Source: Eubacteriales bacterium
GTDB taxonomy: Bacteria; Bacillota; Clostridia; Oscillospirales; CAG-382
NCBI GenBank assembly: GCA_045537905.1
Contig: JAZSQJ010000070.1
Location: 5,628-69,627 of the forward strand
DNA length: 64,000 nucleotides
Direction of reading: 5' to 3'
The stretch's first letter is position 1; each line of letters starts with the position of its first letter. The position numbers and the translations under genes are program-made. The notes beneath the pieces were generated by a model. That model was not told the DNA's origin and did no database searches. It was given only the letters and a program-made list of their open reading frames with translations. Of this stretch, positions 5,103-44,691 are shown in pieces.

Positions 5103-6692
5103 ATGAAACGCATTTTCACTTTACTGCTTTGTATGACCCTTTGTTTTAGTTTTCTGGCTGTTCCTGCCGTTTTTGAAGCAGGTGCCGCTACCAGCACCAG
5201 CGTTTACGTGATTTGTGCCAACCCCGGCGAAAACTGCGATACGGAAATAGGCATTAGCTGGCACTCTGATTTCGATTGCACCGCTTGCTTCGTGGAATAT
5301 AAGCCTGCCTCTGAAAGCGGCTGGGACAACGTTACCACCGTTGCGGGTACCTATAACGATACCGATTATAAGTATTTTTTAGGTAACACCTTTGCAACCT
5401 CTGCTGCAGAGCCTGTTTTTTCCGAGGAGCATAAGTTTTTGAATTACGGTGCAGACCTTACAGGACTTAAGCCTGCAACCAGATACAAGTACCGCATAGG
5501 CGACGGTAAGGGCAGCTATTCCTCTACCCGTTATTTCAAGACCTCCGGTGCGGAGGAGTACAGCTTTGTTTGGATAAGCGACTTCCATACATACTCCCCT
5601 CTCGGCGGCAGACTTTCTGCGGCAACAAATGCAGTAGCATACGCAGCAAGCCAGTCCACCAACGGTATCGATATGATTTTCAGCACGGGTGATACCGTAG
5701 CATACGGCGGCAGCCACTATTTTTGGAAACAGCTTTATAACGTGAATTGGATAAAAAACTATCTGTATCTTGACCTTAACGGCAACCACGATAATATGAA
5801 CAATACGGATAGCAACAACACCTTCAACTATTTCCGTACCACCCACAACAACCCCGAAAACTGCTTCCTTGGGGACAGCACTACCCCCTACGAGCCCGGT
5901 GTTGTTTATTACACCCTTTATAACGATATTCTTTGGTTCTTCTTTGATAACGAAACTATGAACGCTACCGTCCGTGCACAGCTTCAGGACTGGGCAGGTA
6001 AGGTTATCGAGGAAATGGAAGGCAAATATAAGTATTTGTTTATTTCCGAGCATTATCAGTGGTTTAGCGGCAACACAGGTGCCGACAGCCATTACGGTAA
6101 CTGGTCAGATTTTTGTGACAAGTACGGTGTTGATATTGCCTTTGCAGGTAACAACCACATTTATGCCCGCACCCATAGACTTTACGACGGTGCTGTAGTT
6201 GACGCTGATGCCGACAAGGGTACATATTACATCCAAGCCGCTTCTTCCGACTGCGAAAGAGGTACCACGGGTACGCTTGTAGAGCCTGCAACCTATAACA
6301 ACGATATACTTGCTTACCGTTATAAGAATACGGCTGACCCTGCACGCACCCACGGCGTTTCTCTTATAAGCGTAACGAAAGAGGGCATTACCTTAAAGAT
6401 GTTTGCCTCCGAGAACAAGAGCCAGTCCGCACCTGCCTTTGAGCTTAAGGACGAGGTATTTATTACCCCCAAGCGTGCAGACGTGGATAAGGGCTACGAA
6501 ACAGGTACCAAGGGCGATGCCAACGGCGACGGCAAGGTTAACAACCTTGACGCTACCGAGATACTTAAGTATGACGCAGGCATTACCAACTCTATCCCTT
6601 CCGTTGCAGACGTAAACTCCGACACCAAGGTTAACAACCTTGATGCTACCGAGGTACTTAAGTACGATGCAGGCATTATAAACGGCTTCTAA
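5103..6692 (+). CDS. Secreted calcineurin-like metallophosphoesterase with C-terminal dockerin
   Basis: Signal peptide. Phosphoesterase motifs WISDFH, TGDTVAYGG, LNGNHD, FISEHY, AGNNHIY. The C-terminus has duplicated Ca-binding segments GDANGDGKVNNLDATEILKYDAG and DVNSDTKVNNLDATEVLKYDAG (dockerin type). Confidence 0.8.
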   Translation: MKRIFTLLLCMTLCFSFLAVPAVFEAGAATSTSVYVICANPGENCDTEIGISWHSDFDCTACFVEYKPASESGWDNVTTVAGTYNDTDYKYFLGNTFATSAAEPVFSEEHKFLNYGADLTGLKPATRYKYRIGDGKGSYSSTRYFKTSGAEEYSFVWISDFHTYSPLGGRLSAATNAVAYAASQSTNGIDMIFSTGDTVAYGGSHYFWKQLYNVNWIKNYLYLDLNGNHDNMNNTDSNNTFNYFRTTHNNPENCFLGDSTTPYEPGVVYYTLYNDILWFFFDNETMNATVRAQLQDWAGKVIEEMEGKYKYLFISEHYQWFSGNTGADSHYGNWSDFCDKYGVDIAFAGNNHIYARTHRLYDGAVVDADADKGTYYIQAASSDCERGTTGTLVEPATYNNDILAYRYKNTADPARTHGVSLISVTKEGITLKMFASENKSQSAPAFELKDEVFITPKRADVDKGYETGTKGDANGDGKVNNLDATEILKYDAGITNSIPSVADVNSDTKVNNLDATEVLKYDAGIINGF

Positions 6693-13412: not shown

Positions 13413-13438
13413 GAAGAGGTGGCATAAGCCACCTCTTC
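13413..13438. repeat. Left copy of the duplicated terminator hairpin flanking element copy A
   Basis: gaagaggtggcataagccacctcttc. Identical over 25 nt to 13661-13685, but not followed by a T-run. Confidence 0.8.
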
Positions 13439-13660
13439 AGACCGCTGACAAAGGCACAGAGCACGAAAAAGAATAAAACATACTCATTCTAAAGTAGAAA
13501 ATTCAGGGAAAATTTTCCTGAATTTTCTGCATTTTATTTGTTTTTTCGTTCAAAACGAACCTCGGCTCACAGTACTTAGTACAGTTTTCCCCTCGGTTCG
13601 TCTTGCCTGCACTCTTTCTCAGCACTCTGCCAGCTTGATGACAAGATTTGTCATCAAGCT
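13439..13660 (+). repeat. 222-bp ORF-less structured intergenic element, copy A (MITE-like)
   Basis: About nine-tenths identical (by eye) to the reverse complement of 31394-31614. Contains a 14-bp stem agaaaattcaggga/ttcctgaattttct (13495-13529) followed by attttatttgtttttt. Also contains a GTACTTAGTAC palindrome (13572-13582) and a terminal 13-bp hairpin agcttgatgacaa-gat-ttgtcatcaagct (13632-13660). Confidence 0.8.
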
Positions 13661-13690
13661 GAAGAGGTGGCATAAGCCACCTCTTTTTTG
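13661..13690 (+). terminator. Right copy of the duplicated hairpin, retaining the T-run (functional terminator of the upstream membrane-protein gene)
   Basis: gaagaggtggc-ataa-gccacctctt followed by ttttttg. Confidence 0.7.
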
Positions 13691-13724
13691 CTTATTTATT
13701 TAATTTAATAAATTCGCAAATCAG

Positions 13725-31368: not shown

Positions 31369-31392
31369 AGGAGTTGCAACACTGCAACTCCT
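31369..31392. repeat. Left copy of the duplicated terminator hairpin flanking element copy B
   Basis: aggagttgcaacactgcaactcct. It matches 31616-31639 except for one loop base and is not followed by a T-run. Confidence 0.8.
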
Positions 31393-31393
31393 C

Positions 31394-31614
31394 AGCTTGA
31401 TGACAAACCTTGTCATCAAGCTGGCAGAGCGCTGAGAAAGAGTGCAGACAAGACGAACCGAGGCGATAACTGTACTAAGTACTGTGAGCCGAGGTTCATT
31501 TTGAACGTAAAAACAAATAAAATGCAGAAAATTCAGGGAAGGCATCCCTGAATTTTCTACTTTAATATAATTGTATTTTGTTTTTTTCGTGTTCTGTGCC
31601 TTTGTCAGCGGTCT
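31394..31614 (-). repeat. 221-bp ORF-less structured intergenic element, copy B (inverted relative to copy A)
   Basis: Its reverse complement aligns end to end with 13439-13660. Differences cluster in an AT-rich patch and in hairpin loops (aaatt versus tgcct; gat versus ggt) while the stems are preserved. Confidence 0.8.
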
Positions 31615-31648
31615 GAGGAGTTGCAACACCGCAACTCCTTTCTGTTTT
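31615..31648 (+). terminator. Right copy of the duplicated hairpin with T-rich tail (terminator of the XRE gene)
   Basis: gaggagttgc-aacacc-gcaactcctt followed by tctgtttt. Confidence 0.6.
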
Positions 31649-32228
31649 AATCTAATTTGCACCTTACAACGGTGTACTCGAAGCCGTAGCTGTTTCTTGC
31701 AAAAAAGCTAAGCTCCCCTTCCCCATCAGACAGCTTCTCGTAGGAAACGTCCTCAGTTATAAGAATCTCACTTACCGCATAGGTGTAGCGAGCACCCAAG
31801 GTGTCGGTAAAATATACCGTATCGCCCGTGGATATATTCTTCATAAAATCAAACTGGCCCTCGTTATCACTGCCGCCGATTATCAGACTGCTGTCGTATA
31901 TGCTGCCGTCGAATCTATGGGGATATTTGCTTACGTCCTTTGCACTCCATTTATTTGCAACGGGCAAGCACACGTTATAAGCGGGTATCTCTATAATACC
32001 TACAAAGTCTACACCGTCCAGCTCTATGGAAGGCATAACGGTGTCTCCCTTGCCGTCAGGATATCCGTTTTGGACTTCAGGCATCAGTTCTTTCATTTCC
32101 TCGGTAATAGCCGCCGCCTTGTCTTTGTTGCCGGGAATGGCAATTCTGTTAACCACAAGCAAGGCCAGAGCCGATGCAAACAAAAGAATGCCCAAGATGA
32201 GGATTATCTGCGATACTCTTTTAGTCAT
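31647..32228 (-). CDS. Sortase-fold membrane protein lacking the canonical His/Cys/Arg triad (pseudo-sortase)
   Basis: N-terminal TM anchor. The sortase-like core (IEIPAYNVCLPV..., GDTVYFTDTLGARYTYAV) aligns to SrtA/SrtC. It has IIGGSDNEGQF where sortases have (I/V)AGH..., and ELSFFARNS where they have TLxTC. Confidence 0.6.
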   Translation of the reverse strand: MTKRVSQIILILGILLFASALALLVVNRIAIPGNKDKAAAITEEMKELMPEVQNGYPDGKGDTVMPSIELDGVDFVGIIEIPAYNVCLPVANKWSAKDVSKYPHRFDGSIYDSSLIIGGSDNEGQFDFMKNISTGDTVYFTDTLGARYTYAVSEILITEDVSYEKLSDGEGELSFFARNSYGFEYTVVRCKLD

Positions 32229-33129
32229 TAGCTTTCCTCTTTATGCCAACAGAAAGGAGCATAAGGATTGCGCCTACGGAAAACAATGCCAAAACATAGG
32301 GCCAAACTACTGCCACGTCGCCCGTGGGAGGTGGAGGTATTACCGTCTTAAAGGTGTTGGTTACGATAAAGGCAGTACCTTCCTCGGTAACGCTTACGGT
32401 ATAATTTTCGGCAATGTTTCGTTCTACAACAGTCCACTTGCTGCCATCGTCTGCCGCCTTCCAGCTGTAGGACCAATTGTTTTCTGCAGAAAGGGTTTGC
32501 GTCTCAACCGTCTTCCCATCCTTAAAAATTTCTATTTCTATAGAGGTGGGGCGTTTGTCGGAGCCGGAATCCTTCCACTGCTTTACAACCTTATACTCAA
32601 GCTCATCAGGCTCGGGAACGTGGGTAGTATGCTTGGGAAGAGCCGTTACCTCGTACTGAGGATTGCCGTCTGCATCGGGTCTGGGCAGAGAGGAGAAAAA
32701 GCTTTCAAAGCTGTATATCAAATCGTTCTTTTCGCTCTGTACGCCGTATACAAGATAAAGTCCCTTGCTAAGACCTTCAAAGACAGCCTTACCCTCCTCG
32801 TCGGTCTTGACGGTAGCGGCAGGAGAAATGCCGTCAGCTACTATATAGGAGGTGAGAGTAGTAGCGATAGTACGCCACTCCTCCTGACTTTTTACAACTT
32901 TGACATCAACGGGATAGTCCTTGAAGTCACCGCTGAGGGTATAGGCACCGTCTGCACCTATATCGGCTACACGGAACAGGCTTATTTCAAGACCGTCAAA
33001 CAAAAGCTCCTCTGCCTTATACACAACCGTAAGGGTAGCTGTTTGTTCACCATCCTCAGCAAAGGCAAGGGTGCCGCCCATTTGCAACAGCAACGCCAAG
33101 GTTATTAAAAACACAAGTATTTTTTTCAT
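32221..33129 (-). CDS. Cna-B-domain minor (probable base) pilin with PPPTG-type sorting signal
   Basis: Signal peptide; CnaB-like YKVVKQWKDSGSDKRPTSIEIEIFKDGK...NYTVSVTEEG. C-terminal IPPPPTGD plus a hydrophobic helix plus KRKAND. Confidence 0.75.
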   Translation of the reverse strand: MKKILVFLITLALLLQMGGTLAFAEDGEQTATLTVVYKAEELLFDGLEISLFRVADIGADGAYTLSGDFKDYPVDVKVVKSQEEWRTIATTLTSYIVADGISPAATVKTDEEGKAVFEGLSKGLYLVYGVQSEKNDLIYSFESFFSSLPRPDADGNPQYEVTALPKHTTHVPEPDELEYKVVKQWKDSGSDKRPTSIEIEIFKDGKTVETQTLSAENNWSYSWKAADDGSKWTVVERNIAENYTVSVTEEGTAFIVTNTFKTVIPPPPTGDVAVVWPYVLALFSVGAILMLLSVGIKRKAND

Positions 33130-33132
33130 ATA

Positions 33133-33960
33133 CTAGTCCTCCCTGTCATCTTTTTTCACAGGCTTAAACAATACTATCATCATAAGCACAAAGAGTATGG
33201 GCAGTGCAACGATAGGTGCAACGACCAACACGTCTATAACGTATCCGTCGGTTTTAACGTAAATAACCTTATGCTCAATCGTTTCTATACGGCGTCCCCG
33301 TACCAAAAGACGCTCCGTATTAACGCCGTAAGGCGTGCAAGTGAGCAGGGTGCAATAATCACCGCCTGAGTCTATCTGCAAAAGAGATGCATCGTCAGGC
33401 ATTACTATGCGTATCTGGTCCACCTGATAGGTCAACGTACGGTCGAGGATGGTAACGGTAAAGGTGTCGCCTACTGACAGCTTATCAAGGTCGGTAAACA
33501 GCTTTGCACTGGGCAGACCGCGGTGGGCAGACACAACGGCATGGGTGCCTGTGCCGCCTATAGGCAGGCTTGTTCCCTGCAGATGACCTATGGCTACGGA
33601 CAAAACGCCGTCCGAGGTGCCGTGGTACAAGGGAAGCTCTATACCGATTTTCTTTATTGTTACATAGCCCATCATACCTACGGAGTTAAGATTAAGCACG
33701 TCAAAGTAGCCGTCAACCTGATTATACTCCGTAAGTGGATAGTCCAGACTGCTTAGTTTTTTATTATACTCCTCGGCTTTGTTAAATATGGCGGTGTAGT
33801 CCGCATTATTAAGGGCGTCAAGCATAGACTGATAGTCAACTATAGCCATTGACTGGGTCTTAGAGTTCCAATAATCGCTGAGTGCAGGATACAGCATAAT
33901 TGAAAGCCCTATAAAAAACGCAAGGAGCAACATAAACGTTGGCCATTTTTTTTGTTTCAT
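33133..33960 (-). CDS. Class C (pilin-polymerising) sortase
   Basis: VVSAHRG (His), TLLTCTPYGVNTERLLVRG (Cys and Arg), N- and C-terminal TM helices. Confidence 0.9.
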   Translation of the reverse strand: MKQKKWPTFMLLLAFFIGLSIMLYPALSDYWNSKTQSMAIVDYQSMLDALNNADYTAIFNKAEEYNKKLSSLDYPLTEYNQVDGYFDVLNLNSVGMMGYVTIKKIGIELPLYHGTSDGVLSVAIGHLQGTSLPIGGTGTHAVVSAHRGLPSAKLFTDLDKLSVGDTFTVTILDRTLTYQVDQIRIVMPDDASLLQIDSGGDYCTLLTCTPYGVNTERLLVRGRRIETIEHKVIYVKTDGYVIDVLVVAPIVALPILFVLMMIVLFKPVKKDDRED

Positions 33961-33985
33961 TTACAATAATTACTTCCTTAATTTT

Positions 33986-34058
33986 CGGTGCAGAAGCCGC
34001 TGCCCTACTGTTAAGACATCGGCTTCTGCACCCAAAACCAAAGGCTTTGGGTGCAGAA
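33986..34058 (-). promoter_or_regulatory. Three-segment alternative-hairpin element between the major pilin and sortase genes
   Basis: The middle segment (34020-34036, cggcttctgcacccaaa) can pair with 34046-34058 (tttgggtgcagaa; 13 bp, perfect). It can alternatively pair with 33986-33999 (cggtgcagaagccg; 13 of 14). The two pairings are mutually exclusive. The second helix ends 8 nt upstream of the sortase RBS. Confidence 0.5.
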
Positions 34059-34088
34059 TATATTAGTATTATACCAATAAAATTACGA

Positions 34089-35492
34089 TTAGTCAACAAC
34101 CTTGGACATTCTTACTCTGGTAACGAAGAATATGCCTGCAAGGAGAGCTACAAGACCGCCAACCAGGATGAACATGGTGGTGCCGAAGCCGCCGGTTTCA
34201 GGAAGAACTGCACCGGTCTTGTTGATTACCTGTACACCGCCTTCAATGTAAATCCCTTCGGTAACGGTTGCATCGTTATTAGCAGCGCTGATAGTAACAG
34301 ACTGGCGTGCGGTAAGCTTGTTATAGCCTGCAGGAGCAACAGTTTCTTCAAGATAATAAGTAGCACTGTCGAGACCGGCGATGGTAGCTTTACCGTTAAG
34401 GGTTTCGATTTCAACGCCGGTTTCGCCTGCCTTAGCTACACGGTAAGAACCGTCTTCGATCTTAATAACGGAGATCTCGTTGCCTGCGGTAGCAGCATCG
34501 TAAAGCTTAAACTTAGCGCCGTTAAGAGTTGTGTCAGATTCATTAGTCTTTACAAGATCAAAACTGTAAACATAGGTAGTTGTGGTTGCTTCGTTAGACT
34601 TAAGGTCGCTGTTTTCGCCGTACACAAGGAAGGTCTTGTTGAGGTTGCCTGCACCGCCAACAACAGCATTTTCGTTGATGGTAGCTGTATATTCAACAAC
34701 GATAGCCTTGTTTGCAAGGGTAGCAACATAAGAGTTTTCAAACGAAATCTCAAAATCACAACCGTCGGTAAGATCAGTTGCGGTTACTGTGTAGTTAGCT
34801 TCATCAACAGCAACGCCGTCAACGGTAACAGAGCTAACGCCGGCATAATCAAGACCTGCATCCATTACGTCGTGAAGAACGTAATTCTCAGCACCTGCAA
34901 CAACGTTGATGGTGGTCTTAAAGTTTACGGTAGCAAAGAAATTGTCGTCGTTGGTTTCGCCCCAAGCATCGTCTTCTTTAACTTCCTTGGAAACGTTGGG
35001 GATAAGGTTCTTATCGTCTTTTTCGAAGGAGGTATCAGTGGTGTCGAGCACGCAGAGAGTACCAACGGTGGAGTCTACAAGGTAGTAACCAAGGTCAAGA
35101 CCTGTAAAGGAAACGGTAGTGCCATCAGCTTCTACGCTTTCGGTGGCGGAGATAGAATTGGTCTCAGCGTAAGCGATAGCGGCAGCAGCGATAGCAGCAG
35201 CGTCGGATGCGGAAACGGTTACACCGTTAGCAACGGTAACGATACCGGTATCTTCAGCGTAGCTAAAGTAAGCGCTTTGTGCTTTGAAGAAATCAACCCA
35301 TTCAGAAACAGCAGTGTAGGTATAAGCTTTAGCAGTTGCATTATAGCTAAGGTCTGCTATTTTGTAAATGGAGTAGTCCTGACCAGCAACGGTGTTGTTG
35401 ATGGTAATGGAGCCTTCGCCTTCAGCGGATACGGAGATGCAGCAAGCCATAAGAAGCATTACTGCGCAGAGGATTGCAACGATTCTTTTCAT
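34089..35492 (-). CDS. LPXTG-anchored major pilin (isopeptide-forming fimbrial subunit)
   Basis: Probable start MKRIVAILCAV (35492). E-box YYLEETVAPAGY; candidate pilin-motif lysine in LIPNVSKEV. C-terminal LPETGG plus hydrophobic helix plus RVRMSK. Confidence 0.85.
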   Translation of the reverse strand: MKRIVAILCAVMLLMACCISVSAEGEGSITINNTVAGQDYSIYKIADLSYNATAKAYTYTAVSEWVDFFKAQSAYFSYAEDTGIVTVANGVTVSASDAAAIAAAAIAYAETNSISATESVEADGTTVSFTGLDLGYYLVDSTVGTLCVLDTTDTSFEKDDKNLIPNVSKEVKEDDAWGETNDDNFFATVNFKTTINVVAGAENYVLHDVMDAGLDYAGVSSVTVDGVAVDEANYTVTATDLTDGCDFEISFENSYVATLANKAIVVEYTATINENAVVGGAGNLNKTFLVYGENSDLKSNEATTTTYVYSFDLVKTNESDTTLNGAKFKLYDAATAGNEISVIKIEDGSYRVAKAGETGVEIETLNGKATIAGLDSATYYLEETVAPAGYNKLTARQSVTISAANNDATVTEGIYIEGGVQVINKTGAVLPETGGFGTTMFILVGGLVALLAGIFFVTRVRMSKVVD

Positions 35493-35538
35493 AACATAAT
35501 TCCTTTCTGTTTTTTTGTTTATTTTAGTATGTTGCAAA

Positions 35539-38500
35539 CTAATTGGAACGATTGTTTTTACGCTTATATCTCAGCACACAAGCTCCGCCAAAGGCAAGAA
35601 GCATTACAGCAATGCCGATATAAGGCATAAGGCGTCTTATCAGACTGCCGTTTGTGGAAGGAAGCTCATAACCGCCTGCATTGTAGAAGGTTATGCCTGA
35701 AGCGTTTGTTATTTCCCCACTTGCGGTTAAACCGTTAACACGGTCTTCGCTGTCAGCAATTTTGTAGGCCGTTTGATAGCCGCCCGCAGCAGTCTCGGTA
35801 ACAGTCCATACTGCACCAATGGGCAGGTTTTGGATCTGAACGGTCTGACCGTGAGCAAGACTGATTGTAGCGGCACCGTCAACAAAGGCAACGGAGGTAA
35901 TAACACCGCTTGTATCGGTACAGGAGTAGGTGCCTGTTAAGGGAGTAGCTCCGTTCATAACCCTTACGGTAAACTCAAAGCTTCCCGTAGTATTTTCCAC
36001 ACCCTCTACTTCCTTGGATATGGACAGCACACCGACAAGGGCGTTTTCAAAGCTGAAGGTGCTTACACCGCTACCCGTACCGTTAAGCAACAGGGTAGGT
36101 GTTGCGGTGGTTTTACCCGTAGAAGAATCAACAGAAAAATCAACCTTAAGGATGTAATAATCAGTATCGTAGCCGGGATAGATGTCTGCGCCCTCCTCGT
36201 TAATCAGGAAGTAGGCGCTTGCACTTGTATCCCAAGAGGAGTTAAAGCTGAGTGTGAAGCTTACGGGTGCCGCCGCCGTGCCGTTAACCATAACGGTTTG
36301 AGACATCACAACACCGCCGTCAACGGGTACATAGGCACCGTCAACCAAGCTTACCTGCGTCAATTTCACGGTGTAATCGTGGTCGGCACCGTCGGAATTG
36401 AGCAGAGTTTTGTTACCGTTTACGCTTAGCTCAATCGGATCGACGCTGTTTGTAACCGTAACGACGTGCTTAGTGGAAAGAGCCGCATTACCAACAACGA
36501 CGCCGCCGTTGGTTGACAGGGTCTGGCTAAGGCTTCCATCCCACGCCGTATATGTGCCTGGGTTATTATTAGCACAGCTAAAGGAATAAGCCGTTTTATA
36601 GGTAGTGCTTGTTACCTCGTTAAGCTCTATCTTGGTCTCAGCCAGGATATTGTTGAACTTAACATACTTGTCAGAGCTGAACGTAACCTTACCTGCGGTG
36701 GTCACTGTGTGCATACCGCTTACCAAGGTGCCGTCGGCATTATATAGCTCATAGGGAGTGCCCACCGGGACGGGAACACCGTCAAATTTCAGGTCGAAGG
36801 TAAAGTTTCTTACCGCATTATTGAAGTCATCAAGCTCCTTGTGTATCTCAAGGGAGCTGTAGTAGTTTTCGTTAACCACATTGGTTACGTCAACTATCTG
36901 GATAGTCTGACGTTCATCAATAGTACGCTTAAAGATCTGAACCTCGGTAAGACCTACAACACCGCTGCCGGAGCCGGGAACGGTATTATCGCCCACAACT
37001 ATAGAATCCACGTAAACCTTTACTACAACTATGTTGCCGATAACGGGAGTACCCGTAATGGCATATTTGCGGACGTTGGCGGTAGATTCAATCTGTACGT
37101 GCTGATTTTTAGTAACAGAACCGAGGAGCGTACACTGGGTATAAGATTTTGCGTAACCGACGTACACCTCAATCCTATCGGGAAAGCCGCCGTAGTAACG
37201 ATTCCTTACAGTGGAGTATACGTTTACCTCGCCGACCTCAGCCGCCTCAGGTAAAACGAAATAGATATTAAACGACCCGGTGCTCAAAGGGTTAAAGCCG
37301 CTTGTGGTGACTTCCATAACGTTTGACGTGCCGTTTGTGGAAATAACACCGTCGTTTAGTTTACCTGCGTGGTCTATTGTATGTGCCGTGTATCCGTTTG
37401 CTTCGCCGTAGTCGCTCGTGTTGGGGACTGCCTGGCTACCCAAGGCGTACAAACCGCCGTTGGTTGATGCGGCAACATTTATATGCATAGCTTCCTCGGC
37501 ACCGCTGTTAGCGTGAATATGGTCGCTTTCTATAGCGTAGTAGTGTACTCCACCCACGACAATATCCTCGTTAACGTTACTAGACGGGGGATTTGGTGCA
37601 ATTTCTATAGTGACCGCCGAATACTGTGAGGCGTATTTTTTATCAACAAGCTCCCTGACGAAAAACTCTTTATCAAGGGGAACACCGCCCATTGCAACTT
37701 CATTCGCTTTAATGCGGATAATGCCGTTTGCATCAACAGTTCTACTTTCTATAAACTGAAGAGTCGCTTTGTCATACACCGCATATTCCGTACCGGGCTC
37801 TATAAGAACGGTATTATTATCGGTATCAGAAACACCGTCAATATGTTCAACTATCTGGAAAAGATAGTAGGGGTCGCCGACAACGGTACCGGCTTGAACC
37901 TCTTTGGAAATCTCTATACTGTTTTTAGGCATTGCAGTAAGGTTGAAGTTGATGCTGCACATACTGGAGCCCGAACCGCGCTCCATATAGTAGAAGTCAA
38001 GGGAGTGAACGGTATCTTCTGCAAAAGTACCGTTTACCAAGCTATTTGTGCTCATACCTGCCGCAGTAAGAATTTCAGCAAAGGTAACTACCTTATAGGG
38101 GGTAGATTCAATTTCACCCGTAAAGTCAAGCAGCTTGTAGTAGTAAACCTTACCCTCCCTGAAATTGATGGTACCGCCAACGTGGCTGTGGATACCTGAA
38201 AGGTCCAGGAACAAAACACCGTCAAGATATACCCAAACGTCATCGTCACCGGTGAAATTAAAGGTCATATCGTCCTTATCTGCACCTACAACACCGCCCT
38301 TGGGCTGTGCAAAATCAAAATGTATATCCATACCGAAGAAGAAGTTGCTTTCTTCATCGAAGTCTATGGAAAACAACTTATCAAAGCCGTTTTTTGCCAC
38401 CGTCTTTTCGTAAAGCTGATAAGAAGCGTCGGTGGTAGACGTTACCTTATCGGAATAATATTTAAGAAGCTGATAAGGCAGTACGCCTGCGCTTTCATAT

Positions 38501-40902
38501 CCGCTGAGGAAAGAAGAGGTACCCGTAAGGTTTGTATACATCTTTTCCATAACGTCTGCCAAGTTTTTATAGCACGCAAGACCTGTGGTATTATACAACG
38601 CATAGGCACTTGCAACAGTTCTCTTTATGTAGTTAAGGTTTACATAATTGGAGGTACCCGTAGTACCGTCTGCGTTTGTGTATGTCTGAGGAGACAAAGG
38701 CGTAGTATCCGTTGCAAGATTTGTAAAGGGCATAAAGTTGCCGAAGGGATACATTATAAAGTTAGGCGTTATCTCCTCATCATAAAGCTTAAAGGTATTG
38801 GTTGCACTGTCCCACTGAGCGTGAGTCTCACGGGAGTCAAAATAATAAAGCTGTTTTTCAGGATCGTATTGGAAAAGGCCCGTTATGTTTTGACTGTTCT
38901 TTTGCTCAATATAGCTTAACCTCGTTTCTCTGCCGTTTTTGAACAAATACCCAAGGTCCGTACCGTTAATAAGGGCAGGCGAACCGTTTTTAAGCAAGGG
39001 ATACATAGCGCCCTCGGTAGCCTTTATCGCTGCAAAACCGGGATAAAGCTTATTTATACCTTGAGGATTTCCTGCGCTACCGCAAACGTTAAACTGAGTC
39101 ATATCAAAATCGGAAACGATAAGATCGCCAAAGCCGAAATCGTAGCGTTCATAGTTGAACTCACCGGGAGTTATCGGTGCGGGACGCTGGAAGCCGGGGC
39201 GAGGATAGGCGGTACCGGATGCCTGATCCTGCTGCCACAAGGTGTTAATATGTTCACCGGCTAAGGATCCACCGTAGTCGAACAAATTGATATCAATAAA
39301 ACTCGTGGTATTCGGTGTGGTTATACCGCCGTGGATAAACTTGGAGTTGTCAATAATGCTCTCCTTGGCATAGGTACCAAACAGCAGATAACCAACGCCC
39401 TCGCTTACAGGTGTGGTAGCCGTGCTTTTCGTAGCACTTGCCCAGGTAGGAACAACGGTCGGTGTACCCGATGCGTTATAACTGATAACCGAGTCGCCCC
39501 TCTTTACGTCGGGATCAATAGTAACACCCATCGTCCTGCCGGAGGCATCGGTAAAGAGAGGATGAACCATCAGCAGGTAACCGTTTTCATCCGTATTTGC
39601 TATAGACCTTTTACTTGATCCGTCCTTATGCACGGAATGAACGTAATGGATACCGGTGGTGTAGTTATACTCTATGCGATAGCAATACCAAGAGCTGTAA
39701 TCCAATTGATTAATCCAGGTTTCACCGCTGCTTGCATACATAGCATCCAAAAACGCACCGACGGACTTACCCTTTATAACCATCCCGTAACGCCAGCCAA
39801 CCCAAGCCAGCTCATTTACGTCATACATTGTGTATCTGCCCGTCTCGTCAACGGGTATAACATAGGTTGAAGGAACGGAAACGCCCGCCATAAGCTCGGT
39901 AAGCTTGGAGTAGTTTGTTACAAGATGACGAAGGTTTTCGGGTATCTCGTAATAAATAAGATCAGGAATCCTGTAGGCTTCCATTATTTCAACGAGACGC
40001 TTTTCAAAAGCATCCATATCGTCCTCAAGAAGTGCCATTTCTTCCCACGCCTCATCACATGTGGGAAGCTTATCTATAGCGTCTATAACGAAATCAATCC
40101 GTTCCAGCTCGTCAGCACTGACTGTCTTACGCTCAACCTGAGTTATAAGACCGTAACCCATAACGCTGTCATCTACGCTATAACTGATCTCAGCAACAGC
40201 GTTGTCAACGTCGCCCTCAATAACGGTAAAGCCGCTGTCTTCTACGGATTTTACAACAGCAACTGCATCTGCCTTGCCGTTTTTATCCTTATCAAAGAAA
40301 ACAAGGTCGCCCTTACCGGGTGCGGCACCGTCATACTCTGTATAAAGTCCGTCCTTTTCCCACTCAAGTCTCATTGCATCTACACCTGAGTTATAAGGAA
40401 CCATAATCTCGGTTATATCAGAATAATAAAGGCAGAAGCTAGCAAACAAAGCAGACCAATCACCGTAGGGACTGCCGTGCCACGCACCGTAACGGTTATA
40501 GCCCTGACGGTTGCCCTCAGCGTCGAGTATAAAGTTAAGCTCACTTTCCGTGTAGCCAAGCTGAGTGGTTGCAATGGCAACGATATCATCCGCCAAAACC
40601 CCTGAAAGCTTTACGCCGGAAACAGAAGCGTCCCAATCCACCTGGGTCTCCAGATCCGCCTCCAGGTTTGAATAACAGCTTGCTATATGAGTGTGCTCCT
40701 CTTTCTCACAGCCTTCAGCAAGACAAGCCTCGTTATGGGTATGCTCATCCATACCGCAAAAAGCCTCGTCCGCCATAGTTATACCTATAAGCTTAAGCCA
40801 CCAGAATACACCAAGTACAACGGTGATGGCAAGCATAAGCACCAAAAGCCTTTTAGTGCTTAAGACCTTGTTGCCGTTGTAATCGAAAGTCTTTAATCTC
40901 AT
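35539..40902 (-). CDS. 1787-aa pilus tip adhesin candidate: Cys/His motif, CHAP-like domain, fibro-slime/PA14-like domain, Cna-B/SpaA-like domains, divergent sorting signal
   Basis: Signal-anchor; CGMDEHTHNEAC..C..EEHTHIASC. CHAP-like region aa ~105-252 (YGAWHGSPYGDWSALFASFC ... GDLVFFDKDKNGKADAVAVV...VIEGD). FTGDDDVWVYLDGVLFLDLSGIH (encoded around 38220-38260) is a fibro-slime/PA14 hallmark. E-box-like WTVTETAAGGY. C-terminal YELPSTNGS plus hydrophobic helix plus RYKRKNNRSN. Confidence 0.75.
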   Translation of the reverse strand: MRLKTFDYNGNKVLSTKRLLVLMLAITVVLGVFWWLKLIGITMADEAFCGMDEHTHNEACLAEGCEKEEHTHIASCYSNLEADLETQVDWDASVSGVKLSGVLADDIVAIATTQLGYTESELNFILDAEGNRQGYNRYGAWHGSPYGDWSALFASFCLYYSDITEIMVPYNSGVDAMRLEWEKDGLYTEYDGAAPGKGDLVFFDKDKNGKADAVAVVKSVEDSGFTVIEGDVDNAVAEISYSVDDSVMGYGLITQVERKTVSADELERIDFVIDAIDKLPTCDEAWEEMALLEDDMDAFEKRLVEIMEAYRIPDLIYYEIPENLRHLVTNYSKLTELMAGVSVPSTYVIPVDETGRYTMYDVNELAWVGWRYGMVIKGKSVGAFLDAMYASSGETWINQLDYSSWYCYRIEYNYTTGIHYVHSVHKDGSSKRSIANTDENGYLLMVHPLFTDASGRTMGVTIDPDVKRGDSVISYNASGTPTVVPTWASATKSTATTPVSEGVGYLLFGTYAKESIIDNSKFIHGGITTPNTTSFIDINLFDYGGSLAGEHINTLWQQDQASGTAYPRPGFQRPAPITPGEFNYERYDFGFGDLIVSDFDMTQFNVCGSAGNPQGINKLYPGFAAIKATEGAMYPLLKNGSPALINGTDLGYLFKNGRETRLSYIEQKNSQNITGLFQYDPEKQLYYFDSRETHAQWDSATNTFKLYDEEITPNFIMYPFGNFMPFTNLATDTTPLSPQTYTNADGTTGTSNYVNLNYIKRTVASAYALYNTTGLACYKNLADVMEKMYTNLTGTSSFLSGYESAGVLPYQLLKYYSDKVTSTTDASYQLYEKTVAKNGFDKLFSIDFDEESNFFFGMDIHFDFAQPKGGVVGADKDDMTFNFTGDDDVWVYLDGVLFLDLSGIHSHVGGTINFREGKVYYYKLLDFTGEIESTPYKVVTFAEILTAAGMSTNSLVNGTFAEDTVHSLDFYYMERGSGSSMCSINFNLTAMPKNSIEISKEVQAGTVVGDPYYLFQIVEHIDGVSDTDNNTVLIEPGTEYAVYDKATLQFIESRTVDANGIIRIKANEVAMGGVPLDKEFFVRELVDKKYASQYSAVTIEIAPNPPSSNVNEDIVVGGVHYYAIESDHIHANSGAEEAMHINVAASTNGGLYALGSQAVPNTSDYGEANGYTAHTIDHAGKLNDGVISTNGTSNVMEVTTSGFNPLSTGSFNIYFVLPEAAEVGEVNVYSTVRNRYYGGFPDRIEVYVGYAKSYTQCTLLGSVTKNQHVQIESTANVRKYAITGTPVIGNIVVVKVYVDSIVVGDNTVPGSGSGVVGLTEVQIFKRTIDERQTIQIVDVTNVVNENYYSSLEIHKELDDFNNAVRNFTFDLKFDGVPVPVGTPYELYNADGTLVSGMHTVTTAGKVTFSSDKYVKFNNILAETKIELNEVTSTTYKTAYSFSCANNNPGTYTAWDGSLSQTLSTNGGVVVGNAALSTKHVVTVTNSVDPIELSVNGNKTLLNSDGADHDYTVKLTQVSLVDGAYVPVDGGVVMSQTVMVNGTAAAPVSFTLSFNSSWDTSASAYFLINEEGADIYPGYDTDYYILKVDFSVDSSTGKTTATPTLLLNGTGSGVSTFSFENALVGVLSISKEVEGVENTTGSFEFTVRVMNGATPLTGTYSCTDTSGVITSVAFVDGAATISLAHGQTVQIQNLPIGAVWTVTETAAGGYQTAYKIADSEDRVNGLTASGEITNASGITFYNAGGYELPSTNGSLIRRLMPYIGIAVMLLAFGGACVLRYKRKNNRSN

Positions 40903-40923
40903 AATTACCTCTATATAACGTAT

Positions 40924-41523
40924 TTACCCTAGCCAATCAAATTTTGAAAAGGGCCATATTCTTAAAAATATCTTACCAATCAACTGCTCGTCCGTTATAC
41001 AGCCTATTACGGTGCTGCGGCTGTCAATGGAGGTGTCTCTTTCATCACCCATCATAAAATACTGGCTTTCAGGCACCTGATACGGAAACTCCACGTCACA
41101 CTCACCCAGAGACTTGTTAACTACGTAGGGCTCCTCTATCAGCTCAGAGTTAACGTAAACGTTACCCTCTGCATCTATATCAATAACGTCGCCCGGCGTG
41201 CCTATAATACGCTTGATAAGCACCTTATTCGAAAAGGAAAAGGCACACACGTCGCCAAGCTTTAAGCTTTTGGTTTTAACAAGGACAACCACTTCCCCCT
41301 CGTTAAGGGTTGGGGACATACTGTTGCCCGCAATCTGTACCACGGGAAAAACCAAGGTGGCAATAAGCACCGCAACCGCCGCAACAACTATAAGTCCGTA
41401 GACCGTGCTCTTCAACACCCTCTTGTAGCGTTGCTTATATTTTTCCCTCTTAATTTCCTTTTCCAAAGCCGTTGCCGTTGGTAAGGAAACGTTTTCGATA
41501 TTTTTATCCATTTTGTTCATCAC
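40924..41523 (-). CDS. Type I signal peptidase (S26) encoded in the pilus operon
   Basis: GNSMSPTL (catalytic Ser), LIKRIIGTPGD (Lys box), MMGDERDTSIDSR. Confidence 0.85.
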   Translation of the reverse strand: MMNKMDKNIENVSLPTATALEKEIKREKYKQRYKRVLKSTVYGLIVVAAVAVLIATLVFPVVQIAGNSMSPTLNEGEVVVLVKTKSLKLGDVCAFSFSNKVLIKRIIGTPGDVIDIDAEGNVYVNSELIEEPYVVNKSLGECDVEFPYQVPESQYFMMGDERDTSIDSRSTVIGCITDEQLIGKIFLRIWPFSKFDWLG

Positions 41524-41836
41524 TCGTTTGATCGGCAGTCTGCATAGCGGTGCCTGCCTTTTCTTCCAAAAATTTATTAATACGCATTATGTTCTGGAGA
41601 TATTGAGCCGCTGCAGCATCAACCGCCTCAAAGACGCCGTTTATTTTTAACGCCGCCTCTGCCATCGTGCCTGCTTCCGTCTCCAAAAGCTCTCGCCTCT
41701 TTAGCATTTTGTTTGCCTCGGCAAGCTCTGCTTCCAATCTGTCTGCACGGGAGGTTTGCACCAGCAATAATTCCAACAATTGTTTTCTGTTTAGCTTCTT
41801 AAGCTCTTTTTCTGTCAACAAGCCTCCCCCTTTCAA
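41504..41836 (-). CDS. Small coiled-coil protein, first gene of the pilus operon
   Basis: Heptad-rich LLELLLVQTSRADRLEAELAEANKMLKRRELLETEAG. Overlaps the signal peptidase start by 20 nt. The real start is probably one of the TTG codons at 41821-41816, after GGAGG. Confidence 0.5.
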   Translation of the reverse strand: MKGGGLLTEKELKKLNRKQLLELLLVQTSRADRLEAELAEANKMLKRRELLETEAGTMAEAALKINGVFEAVDAAAAQYLQNIMRINKFLEEKAGTAMQTADQTSDEQNG

Positions 41837-41869
41837 ACGATATTTAGTCCAAATATTACTCCTGCTACT

Positions 41870-41898
41870 AGTATAGCACTTTTCCTAGCATAAATCAA
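41870..41898 (-). promoter_or_regulatory. Sigma-A-type promoter of the pilus operon
   Basis: Minus strand TTGATT (41898-41893), 17 nt, TGcTATACT (41878-41870). Confidence 0.55.
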
Positions 41899-42097
41899 TA
41901 GTAATATGACATTTTTAATGTCTTTTTAATAATTTCATTAAAAACGACAAAAGAGGCCAGGCGGCCCCTCTTGTCTCTTTCCGTATGCGTTTTTTGCCTT
42001 AAGAAGCATATAATACGCTGCGTCGTATATTGCCTCAACATTAAGCGCTACGGCAATTTCTCTTATAAAATCTCTAAGCTTAAGTTTAGCTCCGTAG

Positions 42098-42283
42098 TTA
42101 TTTCATAGAGTTTTCGGCGTTCTGGATCATCTTCTTAACCATCTGACCGCCGATGCTGCCTGCCTGCTTTGCAGTAAGGTCGCCGTTGTAGCCCTGCTTG
42201 AGGTTTACGCCTACGTCGCTTGCAGCTTCCATCTTGAACTTATCCATAGCTTCTCTTGCTTCGGGAACTAAAGTCTTCTTCAT
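42098..42283 (-). CDS. Alpha/beta-type small acid-soluble spore protein
   Basis: EAMDKFKMEAASDVGVNL..GYNGDLTAKQAGSIGGQMVKKMI: SASP signature; 61 aa. Confidence 0.92.
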   Translation of the reverse strand: MKKTLVPEAREAMDKFKMEAASDVGVNLKQGYNGDLTAKQAGSIGGQMVKKMIQNAENSMK

Positions 42284-43392: not shown

Positions 43393-44691
43393 TGTATAGT
43401 ATGGTAGGATTGTTTACAGAATGTACGGGAGGATTGTTTACAGTTTTATGATAAAATAGAAGGCAATAAAATACAAAAAAAGGAAGTGTTTTAATGCCGT
43501 GGGAGAATAAAACTGTGGAAAAATTAAGGAAAGAATTCATTCAAAAAGCAATCCAAAAAGAAACGAGCATAAGTGCTTTATGCAGGGAATACGGAATAAG
43601 CAGACCTACCGGGTACAAGTGGATAGAGCGTTTCAAAAGTGGCGAGGGTCTCAGCGACAAATCTCATGAAGCGCTGTTTAAGCCGAGAAAAACGCCCATA
43701 GAAAAAGAAGAACTAATCGTATATACCAGACTGGAGCATCCCACTTGGGGACCCAGGAAGCTCAAACGGTTTCTGTATAACAAGGGATATGACAACCTTC
43801 CTGCTACCAGTACCATAGCAGATATTTTAAGACGCAACGATTTCATATCCCTCGAAGCCTCTGAGGCTCACACTCCGTGGAAAAGGTTTCAAAAGGATAC
43901 CCCTAACGATATGTGGCAAATGGATTTCAAAGGGAATTTCGGTTTGCTTGACGGAACAAGGTGTTTTCCTCTTACCATCTTAGACGATTATTCTCGCTAT
44001 TCACTTTGTGTAAACGCAATGAGTAATGAGCAGTGGATACCAACAAAAGCCTGCTTAGAAGGCGTTTTTAGAGAATACGGGCTGCCTTTTTCCATGCTAT
44101 GCGATAACGGAAACCCTTGGGGTAGTAACTGTGTAGGCTACACCTTGTTCGATGTATGGATGATGCAACTCGACGTGCTGCCAATTCACGGAAGAAGATT
44201 GCATCCTCAAACGCAAGGCAAGGAAGAACGGTTTCACAGGACGCTAAAGGAAGACGTACTCAAAAGAACGGTGTTAAGGGATATGAAACACGCCCAACAG
44301 GAATTTGACAGGTTTAGATATTGCTACAACCATGAAAGACCCCACGAAGCTCTGAATTTAGATGTACCCGCTAAACATTACAAAGCCAGTAAACGCCCAT
44401 ACATAAAAACCCCTAAAGAGCCGGAGTATGATAGCGGGAAGCAATTAAGAAAAGTAAATTACAAGGGCTATATATCTATCAATTGCTACAGGTATTATTT
44501 AGGTGAAAGCTTTATAGATAAGTATCTGGAAATTGTTTCGGAGGATGAGAAAAACCTCAATCTTTGCTATGGCAAATTTGCCATAGCAAAGATTGATACA
44601 GAACAGAAGCTAATTGTTTCTAAAAAGATTTACCGTAGGTAAATGTGTAAACAATCCTCCCGAACAAAGTGTAAACAATCCGTACTTGACA
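43393..44691 (+). mobile_element. IS481-family insertion sequence (1299 bp) with 6-bp target-site duplication
   Basis: TGT...ACA termini and imperfect ~25-bp IRs. GGATTGTTTACA is present twice at each end. The direct repeat GAGGAC lies at 43387-43392 and 44692-44697. Single transposase ORF. Confidence 0.85.
43494..44642 (+). CDS. IS481-family DDE transposase (HTH + rve integrase core)
   Basis: N-terminal HTH (ISALCREYGISRPTGYKW); WQMDFKG, LTILDDYSRY, DNGNPW, HPQTQGKEERFHRTLKE. Confidence 0.9.
   Translation: MPWENKTVEKLRKEFIQKAIQKETSISALCREYGISRPTGYKWIERFKSGEGLSDKSHEALFKPRKTPIEKEELIVYTRLEHPTWGPRKLKRFLYNKGYDNLPATSTIADILRRNDFISLEASEAHTPWKRFQKDTPNDMWQMDFKGNFGLLDGTRCFPLTILDDYSRYSLCVNAMSNEQWIPTKACLEGVFREYGLPFSMLCDNGNPWGSNCVGYTLFDVWMMQLDVLPIHGRRLHPQTQGKEERFHRTLKEDVLKRTVLRDMKHAQQEFDRFRYCYNHERPHEALNLDVPAKHYKASKRPYIKTPKEPEYDSGKQLRKVNYKGYISINCYRYYLGESFIDKYLEIVSEDEKNLNLCYGKFAIAKIDTEQKLIVSKKIYRR

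Follow-up and report, generated by a model that had tools for sequence, protein, structure and literature searches.

Sortase pili are the chief adhesive fibres of Gram-positive bacteria, and what is known of them comes, to our knowledge, almost wholly from pathogens and a few lactic acid bacteria. Here we describe a pilus cassette of seven genes on the minus strand of a 64,000-nucleotide (nt) stretch of DNA, hereafter the window, from the Eubacteriales bacterium assembly GCA_045537905.1 (contig JAZSQJ010000070.1, positions 5,628 to 69,627), which comprises 1.88 Mb on 89 contigs and is 96% complete. From gene 1 to gene 7, the cassette encodes a coiled-coil protein, a type I signal peptidase, a 1787-residue tip protein, an LPETG major pilin with an E-box, a class C sortase, a Cna-B base pilin and a pseudo-sortase. 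This gene list, first drawn up in a sequence-only reading of the window, stands: all open reading frames (ORFs) lie where that reading placed them, at 31647-41836, and their family assignments hold in profile searches. Gene content, gene order, sorting signals, catalytic residues and synteny all fit the three-pilin pilus in sporulating Clostridia that it had proposed. On this evidence the region is likely to encode a working heterotrimeric pilus, built by sortases in uncultured ruminant-gut Clostridia and probably assembled and anchored by the mechanism set out below.

The genes are closely packed. Genes 1 and 2 overlap, 21 nt separate genes 2 and 3, 1 nt separates genes 3 and 4 (46 nt if gene 4 begins at ATG 35492), 3 nt separate genes 5 and 6, and genes 6 and 7 overlap by 8 nt; the ORF coordinates bear out that the only junction neither overlapping nor short is the 128-nt spacer between the pilin and sortase genes (genes 4 and 5). 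Shine-Dalgarno-like sequences precede genes 3 to 7. Two start codons differ from those first read: gene 1 more likely begins at TTG 41818 (MTEKELKK, 104 amino acids (aa)), matching its database cluster, and gene 4 at ATG 35492.

The order coiled-coil protein, signal peptidase, tip, pilin, class C sortase, base pilin and gene 7 is found in every orthologous locus with enough upstream DNA (about 25 loci, 40-75% protein identity). It recurs in about 30 related uncultured gut genomes, with looser versions in other families of the order. Two independently picked homologues of gene 1 lie in the same seven-gene arrangement between unrelated flanks, and one of them is present in 212 sample blocks. Relative to the closest genome, the tip and pilin share 94% and 95% protein identity and the remaining five proteins 98-100%, and such divergence of tip and pilin is expected of exposed surface structures. 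The genome also carries two paralogous pilus loci, at C61:23600-32440 and C84:12310-5276, each encoding a coiled-coil protein, a signal peptidase, a tip (1700 aa or 896 aa), a pilin and a class C sortase; the C84 locus adds a base pilin with the signal PPVTGD. Gene 7 is present in neither.

Pilins, polymerising sortase and signal peptidase

Gene 4 (34089-35492) encodes the candidate shaft pilin. Its product scores 107 bits against NF033902, the SpaH/EbpB major pilin model (cut-off 95), and 65 bits against the isopeptide-domain model TIGR04226 (cut-off 30). It begins with a signal peptide ending ...VSA/EGEG and closes with LPETGG, a transmembrane (TM) segment and a basic tail. The E-box reads YYLEETVAPAGY, and the pattern YxLxETxAPxGY is conserved among orthologues, as are K176-N177 and K184; LPETGG is nearly invariant. 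With an LPXTG signal, an E-box, an isopeptide domain and the candidate lysines K176 and K184, the protein has the predicted make-up of a major pilin. Gene 5 (33133-33960) matches NF033745 at 254 bits (cut-off 160). Its His146, Cys208 and Arg217/Arg221 are conserved in 33 orthologues, and a C-terminal hydrophobic segment, the predicted TM anchor, is followed by KPVKK. The His-Cys-Arg triad and the C-terminal membrane anchor characterise it as a putative class C, pilin-polymerising sortase.

Gene 6 (32221-33129), the putative base pilin, carries a Cna_B domain, a conserved VxxLPK166, a proline-rich tail and the sorting signal PPPTGD, followed by WPY within the TM segment. Across the orthologous loci this signal is never LPXTG and reads (P/A/S)PxTGD. 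(S/P)PXTG is the motif at which the class B sortase SrtB of Clostridioides difficile cuts, and SPKTGD is the form found in its substrates (PMC4155245). Five sortase-fold genes are present in the genome: three of class C, gene 7 and one class B-like gene on contig C83 (C83:17703-18830), whose product matches TIGR03064 at 1.5e-34 and 119 bits, below the cut-off of 154. Further proteins with xPxTGD-type signals are encoded outside the pilus loci. Because an SrtB-type motif, a class B-like sortase and other xPxTGD substrates occur together in this genome, PPPTGD on the base pilin is most simply read as the housekeeping sorting signal of the lineage. Three different sorting signals beside a single class C sortase would then be accounted for, since a second, unlinked sortase would serve the base pilin. 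Anchoring of this kind would follow the standard two-phase model, where the fibre is attached through the base pilin by a second sortase. K166 as a candidate acceptor lysine and a divergent signal for the housekeeping sortase are together what would be expected of a base pilin.

Gene 3 (35539-40902) encodes the 1787-aa tip adhesin. The protein begins with a signal-anchor and Cys/His knuckles. A CHAP-fold head at residues 45-262 comes next, then a PA14/fibro-slime-like region at about residues 840-1010 and Ig-like stalk domains; a DUF7601 domain recognised by profile, the signal LPSTN, a TM segment and RYKRK complete it. In the orthologue alignment the signal-anchor reads VFWWLKLxGITxAGEAFCG and the knuckles C..EHxH...C. 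Residues 19-50, which cover the signal-anchor and the predicted cleavage region, are conserved far above ordinary signal peptides, and this unusual conservation might explain why the operon has a signal peptidase of its own. The structural model of the head has a predicted local distance difference test (pLDDT) score of 87, and its best fold matches are the CHAP/NlpC-P60 amidases Ly7917, Acd24020, SAV0400 and Gsp amidase; the Pfam match to CHAP is weak (0.0016). The expected CHAP cysteine is a serine (DWS) and the histidine is absent in 25 of 25 orthologues, at catalytic positions placed by eye against what we take to be the CHAP pattern. As modelled, the head is a disabled amidase fold in which neither catalytic residue is retained.

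The PA14/fibro-slime assignment comes from profile matches below threshold, and a sequence search of that region against the PDB gave no match. By sequence, the C-terminal domain matches the tip pilins Cpa/AP1 of Streptococcus pyogenes (2xi9) and 7vcn. The sorting signal of the tip is ELP(S/A)TG in most orthologues and LP(S/A)TN in the subclade to which the window belongs. The architecture as a whole suggests binding of plant or host glycans, or of the cell walls of other bacteria.

Gene 2 (40924-41523) encodes a dedicated type I signal peptidase of family S26 (PF10502 Peptidase_S26, 9e-34; TIGR02227, 130 bits, cut-off 47). Ser68 (GNSMSPT), Lys104 (KRIIG) and box E (GDxRxxSxDSR) are retained in at least 90% of 23 orthologues. 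Because the Ser/Lys dyad and box E are kept and the signal peptidase I equivalog model is passed, the enzyme is predicted to be catalytically intact and not a dead chaperone of the SipA/LepA type. A fourth signal peptidase, unlinked to the pilus loci, lies on contig C51 and is presumably the housekeeping one. Gene 1 (41504-41818, with an ORF extendable to 41836) encodes a cytoplasmic coiled-coil protein of 104 aa without a signal peptide, and its stop overlaps the start of gene 2. The N-terminal 80 aa are invariant in more than 415 clusters of homologues, and profile and PDB searches with the protein returned no Pfam and no PDB match. A homologue lies directly upstream of the pilus signal peptidase in all three pilus loci of the genome and in about 25 orthologous loci. 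Some homologues bear the NCBI name ‘DNA repair protein’, which we do not adopt: there is no Pfam or PDB match, and the matches obtained are weak ones to coiled-coil proteins, such as DivIVA (7e-4) in 6 of 20 members.

Transcription and the pilin-sortase spacer

The operon is bounded on its 5' side by the intrinsic terminator of the upstream small acid-soluble spore protein (SASP) gene (41946-41975, minus strand), a 13-bp stem followed by a T run. At 41898-41870 on the same strand, some 50 nt before gene 1, is a promoter-like site with a TG-extended -10 element, TTGATT-17-TATACT, matching the consensus at 9 of 12 positions. Three relatives have a good TTGCAA-17-TGnTAnAAT at the equivalent position, and a promoter upstream of gene 1 is likely. 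The sequence-only reading had made this site the sole promoter, and that part of its claim is not established, because a 9/12 match barely exceeds background (26 such sites against 18.2 ± 3.9 in shuffles) and higher-scoring sites lie inside the operon, at 34096-34068 and 35368-35340.

The spacer between genes 4 and 5 (33961-34088, minus strand) can form two strong, partly exclusive hairpins with a minimum free energy of -50.6 kcal/mol. Nearly all orthologous loci (L009-L041) have a strong, long, perfect hairpin in this spacer, although the sequences are mutually unrelated, and the window and loci L010-L013 share a two-hairpin form in which a repeated GCACC(C) permits alternative pairing. No Rfam family reached its gathering score anywhere in the window, and by that measure the spacer hairpins fall outside the described RNA families. 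The hairpin seems to be a conserved structural element that might shield the pilin message or lessen readthrough, so that more pilin than enzyme is made.

The same spacer might instead divide the region into two transcription units, with a terminator-like or processing element and a promoter of its own, so that genes 5 to 7 would be expressed separately. We regard this division as a possibility to be kept in mind rather than as the probable arrangement. The site at 34096-34068 is an 11/12 match with a TG motif and is followed by very stable hairpins, and a strong hairpin recurs in nearly all orthologous spacers. These hairpins nevertheless lack a U tract, most of the orthologous ones being followed by an A run, and promoter-like matches are frequent in AT-rich DNA (26 against 18 expected). 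Most orthologous spacers measure 50-100 nt and contain no obvious -35/-10 pair when read by eye rather than by a scan. Moreover, readthrough and internal initiation can coexist.

The terminal sortase-fold gene and its history

Gene 7 (31647-32228), whose start overlaps the stop of the base-pilin gene, encodes a membrane-anchored protein that falls just short of the Sortase Pfam model (25.4 bits, cut-off 26.6). Its family comprises proteins of about 195 aa in 59 clusters at 36-76% identity, called ‘hypothetical’ where annotated. The AlphaFold2 model built from the family alignment has a pLDDT of 90 and a predicted template modelling score (pTM) of 0.81, and in a Foldseek search against the PDB the 50 best matches listed are all sortases, at a probability of 1.00. 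Set against the class C sortase of the operon, the protein has LIIGGSDNEGQF in place of the His loop and LxLFARN (SFFARN here) in place of TLxTC. As modelled, gene 7 encodes the eight-stranded beta-barrel fold of a sortase with neither the catalytic histidine nor the catalytic cysteine. The invariant C-terminal cysteine (TVVRC) was considered as a relocated nucleophile and set aside: the active sister clade described below has the same cysteine beside an intact TLxTC.

The family profile finds matches in 53 of 164 genomes of the family and in 78 of 401 genomes of the order, distributed over 47 of 178 genera, the order-level count taking in active-type as well as inactive matches. A further 48 stretches from the wider set were examined for relatives. 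The weaker profile matches are active small sortases in the same operon position, after the base-pilin gene. These proteins carry A(A/G)HNY, DLTLFTC and RVTVRC, and pass the general sortase model without falling into a named class. In a tree of 80 distinct sequences, the 34 active and 46 inactive forms are reciprocally monophyletic, and parsimony requires one change. Throughout the inactive clade AHNY has become GGSD and LFTC has become LFAR, and the sister clade retains both original motifs.

The sorting signals of the adjoining base pilins differ between the two clades. Beside active forms, the base pilin ends in L(P/I)QTG(Q/L)xxWP, with single PPQTG and LEQTG variants (22 loci with a readable tail). 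Beside inactive forms it reads (S/P/A/T)PxTG(D/E) in 26 of the 32 loci with a readable tail, and the other six have a degenerate motif, PPQLGD in four (L011-L013 and L015) and LPPMGD in two (L006 and L008). The active small sortases, such as those of loci L048-L054 and L056-L075, resemble gene 7 in size, membrane anchor, fold family and operon position, and differ from it in keeping AHNY, LTLFTC and VRC and in accompanying LPQTGQ..WP rather than xPxTGD base pilins. Taken together, the tree and the motifs indicate that gene 7 is descended from a small active sortase of the kind encoded after the base pilin in related operons, that catalysis was apparently lost once, and that along with this loss the base-pilin signal changed from LPQTGQ..WP to (S/P/A)PxTGD.

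A protein with this history might be a decaying relic without function, in an otherwise ordinary six-gene pilus system, and the absence of the catalytic histidine and cysteine, the variability within the family of the residue matching the canonical arginine, and the C84 locus, where an xPxTGD-type base pilin is found without gene 7, are all compatible with decay. We nonetheless consider it unlikely. The single loss was followed by 46 distinct sequences over many genera, nearly all of them open frames of about 195 aa with an intact membrane anchor and invariant GGSDxxGQFDF and LFARN, and retention over so long a span without frame disruption argues against a mere relic. The rate of change is also no higher than that of the pilins, and the start/stop overlap with the base-pilin gene is kept. 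The gene 7 pairs at hand for such comparison are either nearly identical (L006) or share at most 63% amino-acid identity.

The presence of a class B-like sortase was considered as a discriminator of the two states. Such a sortase is found in 12 of 12 genomes with the inactive form, lying directly downstream of it in one of them, and in 8 of 12 with an active small sortase, a result consistent with the model but not decisive. In a genome of another family (G425:C23:13668-15021), a class B sortase over the TIGR03064 cut-off is encoded about 180 nt downstream of a dead sortase gene.

The mechanism that we propose for the heterotrimeric pilus joins these elements as follows. A sigma-A type promoter upstream of gene 1 would give one long transcript, on which the hairpin past the pilin gene would raise the amount of pilin message relative to the downstream genes. 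The three pilins would be exported by the Sec pathway and their signal peptides cut by the operon's own signal peptidase, with the gene 1 product as a putative cytoplasmic partner of that enzyme. The class C sortase would cleave the tip (at LPSTN here and LPxTG in most relatives) and the shaft pilin (at LPETG), and the subunits would be joined by Thr-Lys isopeptide bonds through K176 or K184 of the next pilin. Addition of the base pilin, through Lys166, would terminate growth, and the class B-type housekeeping sortase encoded at C83:17703-18830 would then attach the fibre to the cell wall via PPPTGD. In this scheme the ancestral gene 7 was probably an active small sortase serving an LPQTGQ..WP base pilin; anchoring would later have passed to the housekeeping enzyme, and gene 7, translationally coupled to the base-pilin gene, would most likely have been retained because its product still partners the base pilin without catalysing anything.

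Several observations weigh against parts of this scheme. We know of no class C sortase that accepts LPSTN. The internal promoter-like sites that outscore the 9/12 match upstream of gene 1 bear on the single transcript, and the A runs that follow most orthologous hairpins bear on the role given to the spacer. The base-pilin motifs PPQLGD and LPPMGD, the latter in the nearest relatives L006 and L008, lack the threonine, and in those lineages the base pilin may stay membrane-anchored and uncleaved. The C84 locus has a PPVTGD base pilin and no gene 7, which shows that a base pilin of this type does not strictly require it. Since 8 of 12 genomes with active forms also encode a class B-like sortase, its presence does not separate the two states.

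It is very improbable that no polymer is made and that the three proteins are separate adhesins, each attached to the wall independently: the tip and base signals LPSTN and PPPTGD are indeed both unlike the pilin's LPETG, but gene 4 passes the major-pilin and isopeptide-domain models and has an E-box and conserved lysines, it adjoins a sortase of the pilin-polymerising class with a C-terminal anchor, and the gene order and the proline-rich base pilin with its conserved LPK motif match those of characterised pili.

For the present role of gene 7 within the proposed pilus pathway, we offer one tentative suggestion, which we think could well be wrong: the dead sortase may be a new pilus-assembly factor, a membrane-anchored pseudoenzyme that still binds the base-pilin signal or TM segment (xPxTGD..WPY). 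As a matchmaker it would set the moment at which the chain ends, by bringing the base pilin to the pilus-loaded class C sortase and afterwards the finished fibre to the unlinked class B housekeeping enzyme. If true, the dead sortase, the coiled-coil partner and the active dedicated signal peptidase would make up a pathway with three accessory components beyond the textbook model.

Carriers, known pili and significance

The closest public record is a metagenome-assembled genome (MAG) from goat caecum, ‘Clostridia bacterium RGIG1834’ (locus L006), with 96.5% nucleotide identity across the entire operon. The operon also occurs in MAGs that bear the labels Oscillospiraceae, Acutalibacteraceae, Candidatus Avispirillum or Eubacteriales, with ruminant guts predominating, and none of the 36 public genome matches is a named cultured species. 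The description of the host as a ruminococcus-like spore former is fair, because Spo0A scores above its cut-off in a profile search of the genome and a dockerin-bearing protein is encoded in the window; the SASP gene (42098-42283; PF00269, 1.2e-29), the upstream neighbour of the operon, is further evidence of sporulation. The dockerin protein (5103-6692, 529 aa) joins an N-terminal purple-acid-phosphatase domain to a C-terminal type I dockerin, the two segments of which are encoded by a 69-nt direct repeat (6522-6683), and it suggests a cellulosome-type organisation in this organism. An insertion sequence at 43407-44681, 1.5 kb upstream of the operon, has 42-nt terminal inverted repeats (43407-43448 and 44640-44681) and encodes a 382-aa transposase with rve and HTH_32 domains.

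At the 3' boundary (31369-31640), a hairpin occurs twice (31615-31640 and 31369-31392), flanking a single copy of a roughly 230-nt repeat that resembles a miniature inverted-repeat transposable element (MITE). The mobile-looking repeat that had been said to bound the operon on one side is real. This copy (copy B, 31393-31614) has its own terminator-like hairpin at 31524-31560; a second copy in the window lies at 13430-13712, and the duplicated hairpin flanks each of them. The genome holds 56 near-full and 43 partial copies on 61 of its 89 contigs, 24 of them at contig ends, and the repeat thus fragments the assembly. We considered the repeat as the mark of a mobile pilus island and rejected this, because some 100 copies or fragments of the MITE-like element are spread over the genome and it is no particular feature of the operon. 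Similarity to the closest public genome ends at 31637 (L006:10592), 10 nt past the gene 7 stop, and this synteny break coincides exactly with the hairpin/MITE site.

Among known systems, the FCT pilus of S. pyogenes (Cpa tip, SipA/LepA, FctA shaft, pilus sortase and FctB base) likewise has, within a single operon, genes for three pilins, for the sortase of the pilus and for a homologue of signal peptidase. Its Cpa/AP1 (2xi9) matches the last domain of the cassette tip by sequence, and FctB has a proline-rich tail, as does the cassette base pilin. SipA has lost the catalytic serine and lysine and acts as a chaperone, whereas the cassette signal peptidase keeps both residues. The polymerase is of class C in the cassette and of class B in the FCT pilus, and the cassette adds the coiled-coil protein, the dead sortase and a tip head with a dead CHAP fold.

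Like the cassette, the SpaA/Ebp/SpaCBA pili (Corynebacterium diphtheriae SpaABC, Enterococcus faecalis Ebp and Lacticaseibacillus rhamnosus SpaCBA) have a class C sortase, and their LPXTG shaft pilin bears an E-box, an isopeptide domain and the lysine of the pilin motif; the cassette pilin lies over the NF033902 cut-off. They also hand the base pilin to a separate housekeeping sortase through a divergent signal. That sortase is of class A or E, acting on LPXTG or LAXTG, whereas the one predicted for the cassette is of class B type and would act on (S/P)PxTGD. Their operons contain no signal peptidase, coiled-coil gene or pseudo-sortase.

In spore-forming Clostridia, the necrotic-enteritis pilus of Clostridium perfringens VR-10B (CnaA, FimA, FimB, signal peptidase and sortase) places three pilins and a signal peptidase on one transcript (PMC8088525). 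Pili with a dedicated signal-peptidase homologue are indeed characterised in streptococci, as the sequence-only reading had it, but VR-10B means that streptococci are not the only precedent. It resembles the cassette as a sortase pilus with a signal peptidase in this group, and differs in having class B polymerising sortases and a collagen-binding Cna tip, in lacking the coiled-coil gene and the dead sortase, and in belonging to a pathogen of the Clostridiaceae. For anchoring, PPPTGD and its counterparts SPKTGD and PPQTGD in relatives match the motif tested with C. difficile SrtB together with the next aspartate (PMC4155245). C. difficile has no sortase pilus and its SrtB anchors single proteins; the SrtB-like specificity of the C83 sortase, at 119 bits under the class B cut-off of 154, is a prediction.

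Literature searches for Ruminococcaceae, Oscillospiraceae and Ruminococcus found no description of a sortase pilus, in agreement with the view that none has been characterised in anaerobes of the Oscillospiraceae type. Searches for a pseudo-sortase, or a sortase-like protein lacking the catalytic cysteine, found no paper, and none of the literature searches turned up a study of the three accessory genes of the cassette. The core pilus machinery is ordinary and implies no new category of machine. What the cassette adds is a distinct design, with a private active signal peptidase, a coiled-coil partner, a tip combining a disabled amidase fold with a glycan-binding-like module, and a pseudoenzyme sortase. 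A large and mostly uncultured share of gut and rumen Clostridia carries this design, the gene 7 family being present in about one fifth of the sampled genomes of the order. Binding by the tip would bear on how fibre-associated gut anaerobes colonise particles. The most informative point of the cassette is the evolutionary history of its dead sortase: a single loss of catalysis together with a change of sorting signal would amount to a natural experiment in which anchoring was handed from a dedicated to a housekeeping sortase, and the co-variation of signal and activity gives testable predictions on the substrate specificity of sortases.

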